DNA of 64,000 nt from a virus. Under the pieces are notes generated by a model. The model saw nothing but the letters and a program-made list of their open reading frames with translations, searched no databases and was not told the DNA's origin. The stretch lies in the IMG/VR virus record IMGVR_UViG_3300000117_000007; one strand, written 5' to 3'. Positions 45,718 through 53,019 of this stretch are shown in pieces. How positions within the stretch are numbered: position 1 is the first letter of the stretch; every line of letters begins with the position of its first letter. The position numbers and the translations under genes were made by a program.

Positions 45718-45743
45718 AAGGGTGCTTCGGCACCCTTTTTTTT
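45718..45743 (+). terminator. intrinsic terminator
   Basis: AAGGGTGC-TTCG-GCACCCTT plus T run. Confidence 0.9.
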
Positions 45744-45763
45744 GTGTCCCGATAGACGATTTG

Positions 45764-45771
45764 TATAAATA
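45764..45771 (+). promoter_or_regulatory. T4-type late promoter heading the curli cassette
   Basis: TATAAATA shortly before ATG 45779. Confidence 0.75.
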
Positions 45772-45778
45772 ATAGGTG

Positions 45779-46075
45779 ATGGAAGATATACTATTATTAA
45801 TCAATGAAGTCGGTGTCCCGATTGCAAGTGCAATCGTAATGGCATTCTTTATCTTCCTAACACTTAGATACATCTTAGAGGGTGTATCAGATGATGTGAA
45901 GACTTTAACTGGCATGGTTGACATGCTAGAAGACAGATGTAGAGTTATGAATAACGAGATCGTTAAGATTGATTTGCTTATATCTCAATCCTTAGAACTA
46001 CAACCAGACCTTGATCGAGTCGCCAGAGCAGAGAACTTCGTGGAAGATGGAAGTATTGATGCTAGGAGAGATTAA
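45779..46075 (+). CDS. membrane protein (TM plus coiled coil)
   Basis: EVGVPIA TM helix; paralog-like to the next ORF. Confidence 0.65.
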   Translation: MEDILLLINEVGVPIASAIVMAFFIFLTLRYILEGVSDDVKTLTGMVDMLEDRCRVMNNEIVKIDLLISQSLELQPDLDRVARAENFVEDGSIDARRD

Positions 46076-46365
46076 TGGTCGAAGAAGTAATCAAGGTTGT
46101 AGACGAATTTGGATACCCAGTCGTCATGTCATTGGGAATGGGTTACTTCATTTACTTCATATGGAAATATGTAACTGAAGAACTAGAACCCAGAATAGAG
46201 AAACAAAAGATATCTCTAATTAGATTGATCGATCAAATGAGAATGTTAGATCAGGATCAAATTAGACTTCAGCAAAAACTGAATACTGTATTAGAGTACA
46301 GAAAAGCAGAACGTTTAAGGAAGAAACTACGTAATGAAAAACCAGATAAAGTTATTAAGTCTTAG
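46075..46365 (+). CDS. membrane protein (TM plus coiled coil)
   Basis: EFGYPVV TM helix and LIRLIDQMRMLDQD coil; TAATG coupling. Confidence 0.65.
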   Translation: MVEEVIKVVDEFGYPVVMSLGMGYFIYFIWKYVTEELEPRIEKQKISLIRLIDQMRMLDQDQIRLQQKLNTVLEYRKAERLRKKLRNEKPDKVIKS

Positions 46366-46828
46366 TTTATTAATATCAATGCCGATCATGGCAGATGAAA
46401 TCAAATTTGGTTTCAAAAATCCCTCATTCAGTGGACAGGGTACAGGTGCCCATTACTTAACCATTGAGAACCAAGAGACATCAAGAAAGAAAGCAATCGA
46501 AGAAGCACTCGAATCAGCAAGAAAGGCCGCTGAACGTGAAGCAGAGAATAGTACCCTTGCAAAATTTATTAGGAACTTAGAATCAAGAATCTATGCCCAA
46601 TTTGCAAAGCAGTTAGTAGAGAGTATGTTCTCAAACGATAATCCTGCGGGATTTGGATCGTTCATGCTTGAAGGTAATAGTATTACATGGGAAGTAATTA
46701 CAAATGCCGATGGTGCAGAAGTTATAAGATTAACAATTGTAGGTGAAGACGGAACAGAAACAGTAGTTGAGATCCCAGTTGGCACTGGTAACTTCGGTCA
46801 AGATCCAGATACAGGTTCAGGAGGATAA
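46334..46828 (+). CDS. csgF: curli assembly protein CsgF
   Basis: Signal peptide then F.FKNPSFSG.G (CsgF NPxFGG-like motif), F..NLESRI..Q..QL and G..TVVEIP. Confidence 0.8.
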   Translation: MKNQIKLLSLSLLISMPIMADEIKFGFKNPSFSGQGTGAHYLTIENQETSRKKAIEEALESARKAAEREAENSTLAKFIRNLESRIYAQFAKQLVESMFSNDNPAGFGSFMLEGNSITWEVITNADGAEVIRLTIVGEDGTETVVEIPVGTGNFGQDPDTGSGG

Positions 46829-46829
46829 A

Positions 46830-47741
46830 ATGTTACGAACACTCTTAGCATTAACATTGCTATTGTCAGGTTGTGCTTCGGTTCCTAAATGGAGTGAAGA
46901 CCCTGCAGATTGTTCATATGAAACAGGTAAGTTTGATGAAGGTTGGGGCAAAGATGTTTACACAGGTGTTAGAAAGTATGCAGGTTCTAAATTTATTTGT
47001 GTAGAGAGTCCAGAAGTTGTAAAGTTACCTGCATATATTGACTTACTTAATTTACCACCTGCTGAAGAAATGCCAATAGTTTCAGTATATAATTTTAATG
47101 ACAAAACAGGTCAGAGAAAATCAGTTACAAACATAGCATCTTTCTCGACAGCAGTAACACAAGGTGGTGTAGAGATGTTAATCGATGCACTTAAGACTGC
47201 TGGTGGGGGAACATGGTTTAGAGTCGTTGAAAGAAACGGCATCGATGCATTACTAAGAGAAAGACAGATCATTAGAAGTGCAAGACAAGATTACGCAAAA
47301 ATTTCGGGGGAAGAACCCCAAGGTTTACAACCACTACTATTTGCAGGAATGCTAATTGAAGGTGGTATAATTGGTTATGATTCTAATATATTAACGGGTG
47401 GACGAGGCGCACGGACACTTGGTATTGGATATGCGAAACAATATCGACAAGATGTTGTTACAATCTCCATAAGGGCAGTTAGTGTTCTTACTGGAGAAGT
47501 TTTATTAAATGTACAAACTCGGAAAACGATTTTAAGTTATGGTTCATCGGGAGATATTTTTAGATTTATCGAACAAGGAACACAATTAATTGAGTTTGAA
47601 GACGGTGTGGGTAATAATGAGTCAGTGACGTATGCAGTACGTGTTGCCATTGAGGCAGGTGTACTGGAATTAATCTACCAAGGCCATGAACGTGGTTATT
47701 GGAAAATAGAAGGGTATAACGAAAATGAAAAAACTAAGTAG
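46830..47741 (+). CDS. csgG: curli secretion channel lipoprotein CsgG
   Basis: Lipobox LLSGC; VSVYNFNDKTGQRK, FSTAVTQG, WFRVVER, LLRERQIIR, EGGIIGYD, GGRGARTLGIG, QYRQD and KTILS. Confidence 0.93.
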   Translation: MLRTLLALTLLLSGCASVPKWSEDPADCSYETGKFDEGWGKDVYTGVRKYAGSKFICVESPEVVKLPAYIDLLNLPPAEEMPIVSVYNFNDKTGQRKSVTNIASFSTAVTQGGVEMLIDALKTAGGGTWFRVVERNGIDALLRERQIIRSARQDYAKISGEEPQGLQPLLFAGMLIEGGIIGYDSNILTGGRGARTLGIGYAKQYRQDVVTISIRAVSVLTGEVLLNVQTRKTILSYGSSGDIFRFIEQGTQLIEFEDGVGNNESVTYAVRVAIEAGVLELIYQGHERGYWKIEGYNENEKTK

Positions 47742-48462
47742 TATATTATTACTGATGTCGACAACTTTTGTTTTCGCACAATCCACTGATGATAACGAAA
47801 TAAAAATCACCCAAACCGGTGATACTCTAAAACTTTATATCGACCAAATAGGATTTGGTAACAAAGTTGGAGGTTCTAATGGAAACGACGGGTCATTGAC
47901 AACAATGGCAATTACTGGTGCAACATTAGACTTCAACATCGATATGTTAGGAGACCAAAACAAATTGTTTGGACCTGTAGAAGCAGATAGTTCTAACTAT
48001 CTCATAGATATTACAGGTGATCAAAACAGTATTGATTGGAACATTGGTTATACAGGTTCATCAGATGATTCGGATATTAATTTCGATATCACAGGAGATA
48101 GCAACACATTTGATTTAGATCAAGGATATGTTGCAAGTGCTGAAAGACTAGACGCCGACCTTATATTAATAGGTAGTTCGAATATTTTTGATATTGACTG
48201 GGAATCAGACGATTTAACATGGAACTTAGATATAACTGGTGGTTCAAACAATATTAATACATTGCAAAACGATGGTGAGCAAACATTAGACTTCACCTTA
48301 GATGGAGATAGTGCAGACGTGGATATCAATCAGATATCTGGTTCATGTGCAACAGGTGCCCCACAGGCATGTGTTACACCGAATGCAACTATTATTCTTG
48401 ACGTAACAAGTGATAATGCAATTATTCAACTTACACAAAAAGATTCGTCTAACGATTCTTAA
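47725..48462 (+). CDS. curlin-like secreted repeat protein (CsgA/CsgB-like)
   Basis: Signal peptide; DNEIKITQTG, IDQIGFGN and repeated I(T/I)GDxN/GxxN beta-arch units; C-terminal Cys pair. Confidence 0.7.
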   Translation: MKKLSSILLLMSTTFVFAQSTDDNEIKITQTGDTLKLYIDQIGFGNKVGGSNGNDGSLTTMAITGATLDFNIDMLGDQNKLFGPVEADSSNYLIDITGDQNSIDWNIGYTGSSDDSDINFDITGDSNTFDLDQGYVASAERLDADLILIGSSNIFDIDWESDDLTWNLDITGGSNNINTLQNDGEQTLDFTLDGDSADVDINQISGSCATGAPQACVTPNATIILDVTSDNAIIQLTQKDSSNDS

Positions 48463-49558
48463 TTTAATTTTCCTCAGCGGGTTTGCTTTTGCTGAACCCG
48501 TTGGGGAGATTTCTGAGTCTACAGGACTCGGATCAATTCTTAGAAATTCAGAAGAAGTTGGCAATCAGGTCAACACAGAAATCATATTAAAAGACGAAGC
48601 ATCGACAGGTAATGGTCGAATGAAGATCGTATTCCTTGATGAAGAGGTCCTAGATATGACTGAAAATACATATGCATATATCGACGAAGCATATTATGAT
48701 CCTAATCCAGATCTATCTCAAATGTCAATTAGAGTTGCAAGAGGTACAGCAAGATTCACATCTGGTAAAGGTAAAAAAATTAAAAAAGCAAACGTAAATG
48801 TAGGTACACCTACAGCACAGATCACAATCAAGGGAACAGATTTCACTACAACCGTAGATGAGATAGGGAGAACTCTTGTCATATTACTCCCAGATGAAAC
48901 AGGCGAACAATCATCTGGTGAGATAACAGTTTTAAATGAGGGTGGTGAAGTAACTCTCACTCAGGCATATGAAGCAACTATGGTTTCAACATGGGAAACA
49001 CCACCAACTCAAAGTGTTACACTCAATGGTGTGACACCCAATATAATCGATAACATGTTTATCGTCAATCCACCTCAAGAAGTGCAAGACAGAGTGGCAG
49101 AAGAGGCACAAAATGACCTTGATCAGGATCAAGGAATATTAGATGTAGACTTCTTAGAGTTCAATGAACTAGAACAAGATGCTCTCGCAGACACTACAGA
49201 AGACCTAGAGTTTTCTGAACTTGACATAGACATGCTAGATGTAGATTTCTTAACCGACTTATTAGATGTCGTAGAAGAATTAGAGAGAACAACAGTAGTA
49301 TTTGGAGATGCACAGAAAGTATCTGCAGGTGACTTTTCACTTAAGGGTGCTAATATAGGATTCAACAAAGACTCTCAGTTTAACGTGTTCGTACAAGATG
49401 GCGACTTATACTTCTATAGAAATGTCAATGGCACAATCGAAGTTATCATTGCACAAGGGGGAAGTGGATTCTTAGACGTGGGCGTAGAAGGATATCAAGG
49501 TATTATTGAATTCGGTGATGGTAACGGAATCGAAATTGTTATAAGACAAACTAACTAA
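48410..49558 (+). CDS. FecR-domain periplasmic protein
   Basis: Signal-like segment then VGEI...G, D...T..GRM.I.F.D, G.ARF.SG, TPTAQITIKGTDF and G.I.V.N.GG.V.L; acidic C-terminal half. Confidence 0.8.
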   Translation: MIMQLFNLHKKIRLTILNLIFLSGFAFAEPVGEISESTGLGSILRNSEEVGNQVNTEIILKDEASTGNGRMKIVFLDEEVLDMTENTYAYIDEAYYDPNPDLSQMSIRVARGTARFTSGKGKKIKKANVNVGTPTAQITIKGTDFTTTVDEIGRTLVILLPDETGEQSSGEITVLNEGGEVTLTQAYEATMVSTWETPPTQSVTLNGVTPNIIDNMFIVNPPQEVQDRVAEEAQNDLDQDQGILDVDFLEFNELEQDALADTTEDLEFSELDIDMLDVDFLTDLLDVVEELERTTVVFGDAQKVSAGDFSLKGANIGFNKDSQFNVFVQDGDLYFYRNVNGTIEVIIAQGGSGFLDVGVEGYQGIIEFGDGNGIEIVIRQTN

Positions 49559-49580
49559 ATAGTACTAGGAGGCAACTTTT

Positions 49581-49727
49581 ATGGATAGACTTAAATCTTT
49601 CATAAAGTGGCATGAGAGACAAACTGAATTCTTTACATATGAACTAGGTTTGTCACAATATCAAACCATGTGGATAGCATGGACAAAAGGTATATTAACA
49701 GTATTAATATTACAATGGATATTTTAA
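49581..49727 (+). CDS. small membrane protein (48 aa, not in ORF track)
   Basis: AGGAGG RBS and CTAAATA upstream; MDRLKSFIKWHE...LGLSQYQTMWIAWTKGILTVLILQWIF. Confidence 0.6.
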   Translation: MDRLKSFIKWHERQTEFFTYELGLSQYQTMWIAWTKGILTVLILQWIF

Positions 49728-50428
49728 AGAAAATATTATTAACAATCATAGGGATATCAATTATCCCTATGACCTTATGGGCAGATGATAACGAGATATC
49801 ACTTACACAAAGTGGTAATAACTTTTCATTAGAAATCAAACAAGTGGGATTCAACAATAAAGTAGGTATGTTAGATTCACAATCATATATCAACAATGCA
49901 CCAGATTTAGATATACATATCGTTCAATACAACTTTACTGCTAATCAAAATCAGATTATCTTTGATGAAGTATCAGGTTCAAGTAATGAATTTAAACTAG
50001 GACAAGGTGTTGCATGGCAGAGTGATGGTTCATATACTTACGATGGGTATGAGAGTGGTGGCCACTATATGGAAATAGATTTATATGGTAATAATAATTC
50101 ACTCAAATGGCACCAAACAAATCAAAGTGGTGCAACAGACGGACACGATTTTAATTTTCATTTAGCAGGAGATTGGAATGAGATTAATGGAAGACAACAA
50201 TCAAGTGGTGCAAAAGAAATGAATCTCACAATCTATAATGATGATAACAATGTCACACTTAGACAAAAGGGTGCAAATACAATCCATACAGCAAATGTCA
50301 CACTTGATGGAACTTATGGAACAAATTTAACTCTCAAACAATTAGGAACAACTGCACAAACATATTCACTAACACAAAATTGTTATACAGTTGGTGGTTG
50401 CACAGTATCAGTTCAACAAGGTAACTAA
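49715..50428 (+). CDS. curlin-like secreted repeat protein
   Basis: Signal peptide; DDNEISLTQSG, IKQVGFNN, Q/N-rich repeats (NNVTLRQKG, LTLKQLG, LTQ); C-terminal CYTVGGC. Confidence 0.72.
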   Translation: MDILKKILLTIIGISIIPMTLWADDNEISLTQSGNNFSLEIKQVGFNNKVGMLDSQSYINNAPDLDIHIVQYNFTANQNQIIFDEVSGSSNEFKLGQGVAWQSDGSYTYDGYESGGHYMEIDLYGNNNSLKWHQTNQSGATDGHDFNFHLAGDWNEINGRQQSSGAKEMNLTIYNDDNNVTLRQKGANTIHTANVTLDGTYGTNLTLKQLGTTAQTYSLTQNCYTVGGCTVSVQQGN

Positions 50429-50856
50429 TGCCATATTCAGATAAAGTCTTAGAAAGATTCGAAGGAGTGGTCAATTCACCGAAGCAATTCTCAGTGGGTC
50501 GATTTGATCCAAAAGATAAAGATGTTGCTACAGGTATGGCAGGTGCACCAGCATGTGGTGATGTCATGAGACTACAACTCAAACTAGATGAGAATGAACT
50601 CATCACAGATGTAAAATTTAAAACCTATGGATGTGGAAGTGCAATTGCATCTGCATCTATGTTCGTAGACTTACTCAAAGGTAAGACAATCACAGAAGCA
50701 AAAGAGATCAAAGATAAAGATATTGCAGAAGCATTGGAATTGCCACCTATCAAAATACACTGTTCAGTGTTAGCAGAAGAATCAATAAGAAAAGCAATAG
50801 AAGATTGGGAAGAAAAGAAACAAGACGTTCAACTGTATCCTGAAAACGGAATGTAA
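50428..50856 (+). CDS. iscU: Fe-S cluster scaffold IscU
   Basis: GAPACGDVM, FKTYGCGSAIAS and LPPIKIHCSVLAE. Confidence 0.95.
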   Translation: MPYSDKVLERFEGVVNSPKQFSVGRFDPKDKDVATGMAGAPACGDVMRLQLKLDENELITDVKFKTYGCGSAIASASMFVDLLKGKTITEAKEIKDKDIAEALELPPIKIHCSVLAEESIRKAIEDWEEKKQDVQLYPENGM

Positions 50857-52694
50857 TGTATAATTGGAAAACTGTATTAGTAACTATAGGTCTTTTAGTA
50901 GGTCTTAAGATATGGAATCCATATTTTATAGAGAACATTTCATGGTCATGGTTTGACTATCTTCATCAACAAAAAGAAATAGAACAAGTAGATGATATTG
51001 TTCTAGTAGACATAGACGAGAAATCATTACAGAAGTACGGACAGTTTCCATGGCCAAGAAACATCTATGCAGACTTGTTATGGGAAACTGATCCAACAAA
51101 CACTCATGTTTTTGCAATAAACTTTTCTGAACCAGATAGATTTGGTGGTGACGAAGAGTTTGCTGAAGCACTTATCAATAGACTAACTATTCTTTCGGCG
51201 TCCCCAACTACACAGTTAGATACAGGTTCTGCACCTTATGTAAAGACAACTACATTTGGTGGGGGTAGTATTGAAGATTCTGTATGGAGTTATCCTGGCA
51301 TCTCATCACCCATCTCTATATTACAAGACAATACTTATGGAGTAGGTGTCACGTCTGCTACACCTTCAGTCGCAGGGACACCTAATTTTGATGGAACCGT
51401 GAGGTCATCCCCACTGGTCGTCCGAACTGGCGAGACAATTTATCCTTCAATTGCACTCGAAGTATTGAGAGCATATTATGATCTCCCAAACTACAATACA
51501 AAAGTAACACCCGAAGTTGGAATAGAGTGGATTAGAATGGGTAAAGATAAACCCATCGAGACTACATCTACAGCAGATGTGATGATCAGTTATTGGAATA
51601 AATTCAATCGTGTATCAGCAAGTGAACTAGATCAACTAAATCTTACAAACAAGGTTTTAGTATGGGGTCTAACTGCTGAGGGACTGAATAATCCAATTTC
51701 AACTCCAGTGGGAGTATTATATCCTCACGAAGTTCAAGCAAACCTAATCCATACCGTCTGGCAAGAAGTTCGAATACAACAATCCTACTATCTTGAATTT
51801 CTTGAAGTTGTTTTTCTTTTGGTAACACTGCTATTAATTCTGGGTGTGGTTTACAATGTTCCCACAAGTCTTGCGGCGATAGTGAGTCTAGGTATTTTAG
51901 GACTTCAGTTGGGTGGGGGTTACTACTTTTGGATTTCTGATCTCGTTCTTTTCGATACCTTCTGGTCATCTATAAGTTCCTTAATAGTGTTTGGTCATGC
52001 TTCTTTCAACAAATACTATATTACATATCAACTCAAAGAACAAATTAAGAAGCAGTTCGAAAAGTATTTATCTCCTGACATGATTGCAGAACTTCAAAAA
52101 GACCCTAGTAAGTTAAGACTGGGTGGGGACAGAAAAGAGATGACGTTCTTATTCATGGATATATGTGGTTTTACACCTATATCAGAACACTATAAAAACA
52201 ACAATGACCCAGAGGGGTTAGTAGAGTTAATTAATAAATATCTAGATACGATGACTAAAATCATTCTTAAGAATGGTGGTACCATAGACAAATATATGGG
52301 AGATTGTATTATGGCGTTTTGGAATGCACCTCTTGATTGTGAAGATCATGCTCAGAGGGCAGTAGATTCAGCACGTGAGATATCAGAAAAAGCAGATGAA
52401 CTTATTAAAGAAATTGAGTCACAAGGTCTCCCTACTATTGATGTTGGGATTGGGATCAATTCAGGTGATTGCATCGTCGGAAACATGGGATCGGAACTTA
52501 GATTTGACTATTCCGTCATTGGAGATGCAGTCAACTTGGCATCTCGACTCGAAGGTCAAACAAGAAATTATGATGGGGTTCGAGTGTTGTTATCGGGAAG
52601 AAGTGCTGGATTATGTAAAGATGGATTCTTTACAAAAGTCGACAGCATCACTGTTAAAGGAAAATCCGAGAAGGTGGACGTATACACCATTTAA
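50856..52694 (+). CDS. CHASE2-domain membrane adenylate cyclase (class III)
   Basis: IVLVDIDEKSL..YGQFPWPR CHASE2 motif, three TM helices, FMDICGFT, IDKYMGDCIMAFW and DYSVIGDAVNLASRLEG. Confidence 0.93.
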   Translation: MYNWKTVLVTIGLLVGLKIWNPYFIENISWSWFDYLHQQKEIEQVDDIVLVDIDEKSLQKYGQFPWPRNIYADLLWETDPTNTHVFAINFSEPDRFGGDEEFAEALINRLTILSASPTTQLDTGSAPYVKTTTFGGGSIEDSVWSYPGISSPISILQDNTYGVGVTSATPSVAGTPNFDGTVRSSPLVVRTGETIYPSIALEVLRAYYDLPNYNTKVTPEVGIEWIRMGKDKPIETTSTADVMISYWNKFNRVSASELDQLNLTNKVLVWGLTAEGLNNPISTPVGVLYPHEVQANLIHTVWQEVRIQQSYYLEFLEVVFLLVTLLLILGVVYNVPTSLAAIVSLGILGLQLGGGYYFWISDLVLFDTFWSSISSLIVFGHASFNKYYITYQLKEQIKKQFEKYLSPDMIAELQKDPSKLRLGGDRKEMTFLFMDICGFTPISEHYKNNNDPEGLVELINKYLDTMTKIILKNGGTIDKYMGDCIMAFWNAPLDCEDHAQRAVDSAREISEKADELIKEIESQGLPTIDVGIGINSGDCIVGNMGSELRFDYSVIGDAVNLASRLEGQTRNYDGVRVLLSGRSAGLCKDGFFTKVDSITVKGKSEKVDVYTI

Positions 52695-53019
52695 GATTGA
52701 ATGGCGAGAAGAACCAGCAAAAATTGACAAATACTCAATGGCATTATTCTGGTCATTGCAACTAGCAGATGTATGGACAACCAATAGAGGAATGGATTAC
52801 TCTTGTGTATATGAAGCAAATCCATTACTACCCAAAGTACCACACTTAGATAGATTAGTCATACACAAAGTTGTCTTTACATATCCTTTCTATGATATGT
52901 ATTCAAGCAATCAGTTAACATATGATGACATGATGTGGCCAATACTTCTCTCAATGTATGTTGTAAACAATAATTTACAAGTGATTAATAAGGCAAAGAG
53001 ACAGTGTTCCAAACGATAA
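52375..53019 (+). CDS. putative membrane protein (true start probably near 52674-52738)
   Basis: LQLADVWTT..G....YEANPLL motif (DUF5658-like); the 5' part overlapping the cyclase is doubtful. Confidence 0.5.
   Translation: MRYQKKQMNLLKKLSHKVSLLLMLGLGSIQVIASSETWDRNLDLTIPSLEMQSTWHLDSKVKQEIMMGFECCYREEVLDYVKMDSLQKSTASLLKENPRRWTYTPFKIEWREEPAKIDKYSMALFWSLQLADVWTTNRGMDYSCVYEANPLLPKVPHLDRLVIHKVVFTYPFYDMYSSNQLTYDDMMWPILLSMYVVNNNLQVINKAKRQCSKR

Follow-up and report, generated by a model that had tools for sequence, protein, structure and literature searches.

Curli-type secretion genes, which form part of type VIII secretion systems (T8SS), are known from several marine phages. Zaragoza-Solas et al. 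(2020) described a curli cluster in a hypervariable region of pelagimyophage genomes and advanced a "sibling capture" proposal for it (PMC7029224). In podo- and myo-pelagiphages, Wittmers et al. (2022) described a region with a gene labelled "HK", CsgF, CsgG, CsgA/B, FecR, a second CsgA/B and a cyclase, found these genes ocean-wide and in metatranscriptomes, and proposed FecR and the cyclase as regulators of the T8SS (PMC9599517). Buchholz et al. (2022) reported csgFG in the OM43 phage Melnitz, whose infected cells did not clump, and suggested a role in lysis timing (PMC9004378). Here we analyzed a cassette of this kind in IMG/VR virus record IMGVR_UViG_3300000117_000007, a stretch of 64,000 nucleotides (nt) hereafter called the window, in which genes for curli-type secretion, a FecR-fold protein and a CHASE2 adenylate cyclase occupy positions 45764-53019 of the + strand. 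The hosts have no T8SS or curli system of their own (PMC7029224, PMC9599517), so the infected cell gains a new envelope machine, for which aggregation, superinfection exclusion, lysis timing and uptake are the candidate roles.

Both the gene content and the general regulatory idea have been published, and the cassette is therefore already known; the window adds only another member. By DNA and by proteins, the window is nearest to Pelagibacter phage HTVC008M (KC465899, 2013), whose cassette shows the same order minus iscU. An earlier note on this DNA had stated that csgF and csgG occur in some marine myophages, and published cases are indeed available in HTVC008M, the pelagimyophages and Melnitz. 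Its suggestion of regulation through FecR and the cyclase was already made by Wittmers et al. (PMC9599517), and the aggregation of infected cells with new hosts corresponds to the published sibling capture (PMC7029224). The links to type I secretion system (T1SS) adhesin loci and to a bacterial csgFG-FecR operon, as well as the likeness of the FecR domain to PupR and to the plug of an RTX adhesin, all described below, appear to go beyond the papers cited here.

The analysis establishes the identity of the genes and their export signals, shows that the catalytic set of the cyclase is intact and reveals a strict co-inheritance of these genes. The conserved core is a pair of small proteins, CsgF, CsgG, one or two curlin-like subunits, a secreted FecR-fold protein and the CHASE2 adenylate cyclase, while IscU and the tiny open reading frames (ORFs) are passengers. 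We give an even chance to a joint explanation in which the cassette, a curli/T8SS island already known from T4-like phages that infect streamlined marine bacteria, would work as one functional operon, and in which the FecR-fold protein would be a pore-side adaptor coupling the state of the CsgG/CsgF pore or of the fibre to the CHASE2 cyclase.

Composition and export signals of the cassette

The window belongs to a T4-like myophage, with large terminase, tail sheath, portal and DNA polymerase matching PHROG families. The genes of the cassette follow one another in the order given below and either overlap or are separated by gaps of 1-47 nt. Lengths are given in amino acids (aa).

45764-53019, + strand: the whole cassette, with curli-type secretion, FecR and CHASE2 cyclase genes
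45718..45745, + strand: intrinsic terminator of the preceding gene (stem of 8 base pairs, 5 of them G-C pairs, with a T-run after it)
45764..45771, + strand: TATAAATA, a T4-type late-promoter-like motif that ends 7 nt 5' of the first ATG
45779..46075, + strand: small protein 1, 98 aa, with an N-terminal hydrophobic helix and a coiled coil (phrog_18771, function unknown)
46075..46365, + strand: small protein 2, 96 aa, a paralogue of small protein 1 (phrog_18771)
46334..46828, + strand: CsgF, carrying a signal peptide (PF10614 at 47 bits, cut-off 25.8; match over profile positions 8-132 of 132)
46830..47741, + strand: CsgG, an outer-membrane lipoprotein (PF03783, 175 bits; lipobox LSGC)
47725..48462, + strand: curlin-like subunit 1 with a signal peptide (Curlin_rpt, 23.5 bits against a cut-off of 20.7)
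48416..49558, + strand: secreted FecR-fold protein with a signal peptide (PF04773 FecR, 35.9 bits)
49581..49727, + strand: 48-aa ORF, kept only in the closest relatives and of uncertain status
49715..50428, + strand: curlin-like subunit 2 with a signal peptide (Curlin_rpt, 19.6 bits, slightly below the cut-off of 20.7)
50428..50856, + strand: IscU (NifU_N, Pfam 135.6 bits)
50856..52694, + strand: fusion of a CHASE2 sensor with a class III (IIIb-like) adenylate cyclase (PF05226 CHASE2, 111 bits; PF00211 Guanylate_cyc, 66.5 bits)
52738..53019, + strand: small ORF of about 93 aa with an uncertain start (about 52738), adjoining the cyclase in 18 relatives

All the genes named in the earlier note were found where it had placed them, and their identities are backed by Pfam. 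The note had recognized no csgE, csgC or csgD, and the Pfam scan likewise gave no match to CsgE, CsgC or CsgD in any ORF of the run. These three are also missing from alphaproteobacterial systems (Wittmers et al. 2022, PMC9599517) and hence do not define the wider T8SS family. Export signals were predicted from the translations, namely signal peptides on CsgF, on both curlin-like subunits and on the FecR-fold protein, and the LSGC lipobox that CsgG carries when read from its true start at 46830.

Among the pore and fibre proteins, CsgG is the most readily assigned — its residues 65-298 match E. coli CsgG structures with an E-value of 6e-49. The mature N-terminus of CsgF bears a KNPSFSG motif, and a phmmer comparison left the solved CsgF chains unmatched. 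Curlin-like subunit 1 is very acidic, with 41 acidic and 8 basic residues, and has a conserved cysteine pair close to its C-terminus. Curlin-like subunit 2 is its paralogue (hhalign 98.8%, E 1e-16) and is optional, being missing in four loci (L004, L025, L033 and L180) where the FecR gene abuts the cyclase gene. Every cassette examined contains one or two secreted curlin-like proteins with a predicted beta-solenoid character. On one GC-rich phage-like contig (L184:3481-4545), the second curlin-like protein additionally carries a PA14 domain, which is a carbohydrate-binding or adhesion-type domain.

An AlphaFold model of the FecR-fold protein was obtained from a 62-sequence alignment with a predicted local distance difference test (pLDDT) score of 84. 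The model suggests a beta domain at about residues 28-205, a poorly ordered acidic linker at 215-300 (28 D/E and 2 K/R) and a confident second beta domain at 300-380. In a fold search of the model against 48,161 PDB chains, the predicted first domain most closely resembled the CCSSD, the periplasmic signalling domain of PupR (6ovk/6ovm, Z 15.5 with 134-135 aligned residues), and, at Z 13.6, a Bacteroides anti-sigma factor. The modelled FecR domain was also found similar to RIN (5ix9; Z 7.2, root-mean-square deviation 2.1, 73 of 76 residues), the third best of the 48,161 chains, with the next match at Z 5.4. RIN is the periplasmic plug that retains a Marinomonas RTX adhesin under TolC (PMC5550230).

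Apart from the signal peptide, the FecR-fold protein has no hydrophobic segment; neither a cytoplasmic anti-sigma domain nor a membrane anchor is present, and for this reason we refer to a FecR-fold protein and not to a FecR regulator. A Pfam scan confined to the ORFs of the cassette gave no match to a sigma factor or a TonB-dependent receptor. The C-terminal domain occurs only alongside the FecR domain and is thus private to this family. Folded alone, it yielded a poor model (pLDDT 56), and the hits of both fold searches went to the N-terminal domain. The possibility that it represents a curlin repeat, raised by an I-x-I-x-Q end like that of curlin-like subunit 2, found no support in profile comparison, with P only 0.019 against subunit 2 and 0.19 against subunit 1. 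No fused forms of FecR were found among longer proteins, which is weak evidence. The FecR domain also contains an (R)GTxF motif, R139-G140-T141-x-F143, in which G140, T141 and F143 are invariant and R139 reaches a conservation of at least 90%; self-cleavage at a conserved Gly-Thr occurs in some FecR/FoxR anti-sigma factors.

In the cyclase, the CHASE2 match spans residues 14-327, and hydrophobic segments at 7-25 and from 315 onward flank a predicted periplasmic domain. The nearest solved relatives are P. aeruginosa CyaB (3r5g), Spirulina CyaC (1wc0) and photoactivated cyclases, all of which are adenylate cyclases. We take the roles of the active site residues, namely two metal-binding aspartates, an adenine-specifying lysine with a threonine or serine, and a transition-state asparagine and arginine, to be those of published class III enzymes. 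The catalytic set listed in the earlier note holds for the metal-binding aspartate pair (D435 and D483), for the lysine (K479) and for the asparagine and arginine (N560 and R564), and fails for the ATP-specifying aspartate of RFDYS, as alignment to CyaB (3r5g) places Ser553 at that position, opposite Lys479 and seven residues ahead of Asn560. The equivalent residue is a threonine in class IIIb cyclases and Asp1018 in mammalian adenylate cyclase, so the enzyme looks class IIIb-like. D435, K479, D483, S553, N560 and R564 are invariant among 12 viral cyclases, and across 59 viral and bacterial cyclases the same holds for D435, D483, K479, N560 and R564, with S553 at least 90% conserved. The assignment as an adenylate cyclase, read from these residues, stands and is unchanged by the correction at Ser553.

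Co-inheritance in phages and bacterial contexts

In order to follow the cassette through related viruses, 80 IMG/VR loci with a CsgG 65-100% identical to that of the window were compared. The gene order was identical in all 80. All 58 loci whose sequence continues for 2.2 kb or more past csgG contain FecR, and all 33 that continue for 6.5 kb or more contain the cyclase. More distant FecR homologues, 27-37% identical, were collected by a search of 1.8 billion representatives followed by contig lookup; CsgF, CsgG, a curlin-like gene, FecR and the CHASE2 cyclase occurred all together on 7/7 informative distant phage-like contigs, some of them clearly T4-like, with a GC content of 44-53% in the four measured. 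The linkage of csgFG, FecR and cyclase, which the earlier note had singled out for checking in relatives, therefore extends to all related loci of sufficient length and to the seven distant contigs.

The pair of small proteins at the head of the run belongs to the core as well. It was found in 77 of the 80 related loci, and the remaining three end just upstream of csgF. In several distant phages the pair lies on the opposite strand, yet still adjoins the cassette. Neither protein matches a Pfam family. The description of both as transmembrane proteins with a coiled coil suits the first, which has the hydrophobic helix and the coiled coil, and is less apt for the second, whose hydrophobic segment is only weak. 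A histidine kinase label, the "HK" of Wittmers et al., was unsupported by Pfam, PHROGs or Atlas.

The full cassette was additionally observed in JGI metagenome contigs L220/L221 and L217/L218, L220 coming from a 155-kb T4-like contig; their sample accessions resemble those of freshwater lake metagenomes, a putative origin. Freshwater fonsimyophages have been reported to be without a curli operon (PMC7029224). Two short contigs assigned to metagenome-assembled genomes labelled Rhizobiaceae and Saprospiraceae (L082 and L083) carry a phage-type cyclase at 42-43% identity, one of them together with curlin-like subunit 2 and iscU, and look like phage fragments binned into bacterial genomes. Two further observations bear on the published lysis-timing idea. 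A GH19 hydrolase gene immediately follows the cyclase on one distant phage contig (L183:10417-11247), and on another an SLT-domain gene of the lytic transglycosylase family lies three small ORFs past it (L180:13998-14447).

IscU was undetected in most related loci. Where present, its gene lay upstream of the cassette in 11 loci, separated curlin-like subunit 2 from the cyclase in 6 and had another position in 1, and this shifting position between relatives marks it as a mobile passenger. The small ORF at the end of the run, described in the earlier note as a transmembrane protein, lacks a strong hydrophobic segment and matches no Pfam or PHROG family; its start is uncertain as well.

The terminator and the promoter motif that had been noticed ahead of the run were both located (45718-45745 and TATAAATA at 45764-45771). 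All 10 copies of TATAAATA in the window lie on the coding strand. Of 77 related loci, 47 have an exact copy in the 130 nt upstream of the first gene (about 3% expected), and the other 30 as well as HTVC008M are without one there. The distance from the motif to the start codon is only 5-10 nt in most related loci; with 7 nt in the window, the transcript would be nearly leaderless. Late expression of the cassette is plausible, as judged from the motif only.

We next turn to bacteria, where the nearest relatives of the cyclase were gathered in 78 loci (31-36% identical over the full length), mostly from Alphaproteobacteria with some from SAR86. Around these cyclases lie type I secretion genes and genes for FecR-domain proteins. 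The 69 upstream neighbours included 17 HlyD, 7 FecR, 5 cyclic-nucleotide (cNMP)-binding, 4 ABC, 4 RTX and 3 TolC-like proteins, and in the 41 loci with near-full flanks a FecR-domain protein and an HlyD-family protein were each found in 17. The FecR-bearing neighbours are often type I substrates of 900-2900 aa, in which the FecR domain (about residues 135-240) is followed by cadherin/VCBS domains and these in turn by RTX repeats with a T1SS signal, and such a giant FecR-headed substrate is often encoded directly upstream of the cyclase. In their FecR region these proteins match NCBIfam retention_LapA below the cut-off, at 24-32 bits against 50. In a FastTree phylogeny, 36 viral cyclases formed one clade opposite all 75 bacterial sequences, so that the tree singled out no bacterial sister group, and the T1SS/FecR contexts were spread over the whole bacterial side. 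The FecR N-domain of phage type occurs in 139 of 401 sampled alphaproteobacterial genomes, with many of the matches in very long open frames.

A 1.4-Mb marine alphaproteobacterial genome encodes, directly upstream of its CHASE2 cyclase, an HlyD protein with an N-terminal cNMP-binding domain (L121:8225-9940, + strand), and similar genes are carried by L138, L142, L144 and L114. In marine alphaproteobacterial genomes with this type of HlyD, a 145-aa cNMP-binding protein comes after the cyclase. The cyclase is thus flanked by two cNMP-binding proteins, which suggests a feedback of cyclic AMP (cAMP) on secretion in those bacteria.

FecR is also found next to csgFG in a bacterium. A 345-kb bacterial contig, GCA_041447055.1, harbors, amid housekeeping genes, an operon of CsgF, CsgG, a Curlin_rpt protein, FecR and a 215-aa protein, with genes ahead of it for kinases of the HWE and dCache types, for response regulators and for an EAL protein. 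Its FecR is a full-length homologue, 31% identical, and shares a C-terminal motif with the phage protein. This operon contradicts a published claim that bacterial T8SS operons do not include FecR, and it indicates that the link between csgFG and FecR is not the invention of phages alone. In light of it we abandoned, as far as FecR is concerned, the idea of three unrelated bacterial modules brought together by phages.

A proposed pore-side adaptor and competing explanations

In the mechanism that we propose, CsgG and CsgF would build an outer-membrane channel in a host without one, through which the acidic curlin-like subunits would exit. The FecR-fold protein would stay in the periplasm, at or under the pore, and its C-terminal part may thread through the pore or bind the fibre. 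From there it could signal to the CHASE2 domain, on the periplasmic side, what state the pore or fibre is in, and CHASE2 would in turn switch cAMP synthesis in the cytoplasm. A FecR-fold domain is found beside CsgFG in a single bacterial operon and beside CHASE2 cyclases in adhesin loci of the T1SS, and the phages combine it with both. Placing FecR at the pore or fibre and coupling it to the cyclase is the most economical reading, since the fold is common to these three arrangements and docks on or under an outer-membrane protein in two solved contexts. The trans-envelope circuit of the earlier note, running from surface amyloid and pore through FecR to the cyclase, gains from the strict linkage and from bacterial precedents for FecR-CHASE2 and for csgFG-FecR, while the contact between the partners, the direction of signalling and the output are inferred.

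Several observations weigh against such a coupling. The likeness of FecR to RIN is only middling at Z 7.2, and the phage protein has no match to retention_LapA (NF033682). Within 10 kb of the nearest bacterial cyclases, not one of the 78 loci contains csgG, csgF or a gene for a curlin, and CsgG is absent altogether from four genomes carrying such cyclases. Conversely, FecR and cyclase are absent within 10 kb of seven sampled alphaproteobacterial csgFG loci, and the csgFG-FecR operon of GCA_041447055.1 contains no cyclase. A search of HTVC008M and of four large related contigs turned up no cNMP-binding protein, which leaves the cAMP output as a real gap in the relay. Cultures infected with Melnitz showed no clumping (PMC9004378). 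Finally, the unrelated iscU inside the operon means that adjacency alone is no proof of shared function.

The main rival holds that two independent modules are co-inherited in a variable island, one being the pore and fibre (CsgF, CsgG and curlins) and the other a FecR/CHASE2 sensor of a non-curli external or periplasmic cue that would reprogram the host via cAMP. The separate occurrence of csgFG loci and of the nearest cyclases in the bacteria sampled fits this explanation, as do the placement of the cluster in a hypervariable region (Zaragoza-Solas et al., PMC7029224), the possible presence of iscU inside the run and the optional second curlin. Against it stands a co-occurrence in all 33 loci, where the gene order is fixed and genes overlap, and the full core persists where FecR is only about 30% identical and the GC content differs, even after rearrangement. 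The bacterial operon, moreover, ties FecR directly to csgFG and a curlin. We therefore consider two independent modules rather unlikely. In another account, CsgG-CsgF would be a plain pore and not an amyloid exporter, either acting like a gated secretin or pinholin to time lysis or serving for uptake, with the cyclase and FecR gating or timing it. This follows the proposal of Buchholz et al. (2022) and the unclumped Melnitz cultures (PMC9004378), and would suit the lack of a Pfam match to the CsgE gate in the run, the late expression suggested by TATAAATA and the GH19 or SLT-domain gene near the cassette in two distant phages. Against a plain pore count the secreted curlin-like proteins retained in every cassette examined, the adhesion-type PA14 domain in one distant version and CsgF, the fibre anchor in E. 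coli, which is always retained, and we judge it improbable.

An iron-related function, with FecR as a ferric citrate regulator and the cassette, perhaps including IscU, tied to iron acquisition, is invited by the Pfam name FecR and by the Fe-S scaffold gene iscU in the run, and was suggested by Wittmers et al. (2022, PMC9599517). It conflicts with the architecture of the protein, in which a cleavable signal peptide is followed at once by the FecR domain, with no anti-sigma domain or membrane anchor, and with the cassette ORFs, which gave no Pfam match to a sigma factor or TonB-dependent receptor. FecR domains also head giant RTX surface proteins, and IscU shifts position or is missing in relatives, all of which makes this explanation very improbable.

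Returning to FecR as an adaptor between pore and cyclase, a wider generalization can be put forward, which we regard as possible though doubtful. The FecR fold may be a general pore-side adaptor under an export channel, TolC in RTX-adhesin loci and CsgG in phages, that tells a CHASE2 cyclase whether the fibre or adhesin is in place. The phages would then carry a portable circuit from secretion state to cAMP in which the export machine has been swapped from type I to type VIII, and the cNMP-binding HlyD would close the loop widely in Alphaproteobacteria. Taken together, the FecR/CHASE2 pairs in T1SS loci, the fold resembling a retention plug and the bacterial csgFG-FecR operon predict that cyclase activity depends on FecR and on the state of the pore or fibre, a dependence that is testable in E. 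coli and in cultivable Alphaproteobacteria.

Comparison with known systems

The cassette is closest to the T8SS region of pelagiphages, with which it shares the gene order and the T4-like myophage setting; it differs in having iscU between curlin-like subunit 2 and the cyclase and the 48-aa ORF after FecR. Compared to bacterial curli systems, both E. coli CsgA-G and the alphaproteobacterial type, it has in common the CsgG lipoprotein, CsgF and secreted subunits with repeats of the Q-x-G-x-x-N type. However, the phage subunits are very acidic with a curlin-repeat match confined to the N-terminus, FecR and the cyclase are added, and CsgE, CsgC and CsgD are lacking.

With the FecR/PupR anti-sigma regulators, the phage FecR protein appears from its model to share the periplasmic beta fold (Z 15.5), whereas it has no anti-sigma domain or transmembrane anchor and instead possesses an acidic linker and a private C-terminal domain. 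A secreted FecR-domain protein beside a CHASE2 sensor is likewise encoded by the Burkholderia "BiofilmReg" locus and by P. aeruginosa PA4035/PA4036, a LysM-FecR protein and a CHASE2 histidine kinase, although the output there is a histidine kinase with a response regulator and the operon contains no secretion pore (PMC5192318). The LapA-type retention module, exemplified by the RIN of MpIBP (5ix9), bears a moderate resemblance to the modelled phage protein in its folded periplasmic beta domain (Z 7.2), and RIN sits under an outer-membrane pore holding a surface fibre. In that module, periplasmic control is exerted by LapG/LapD and cyclic di-GMP is sensed by LapD, whereas the phage FecR is Sec-exported, is not a T1SS substrate and is accompanied by a sensor cyclase predicted to make cAMP.

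Finally, the alphaproteobacterial T1SS loci share with the cassette full-length cyclase homologues (31-36%), a FecR-like domain beside the cyclase and an outer-membrane export machine in the locus. They differ in that the machine is of the ABC/HlyD/TolC-like type and not a T8SS, in that the FecR domain heads an RTX protein of 900-2900 aa and in the cNMP-binding proteins nearby. A related case is the CHASE2 cyclase CyaD1 of S. meliloti, where SMc02177, a target of cAMP/Clr, is a FecR-domain protein (PMC5498481).

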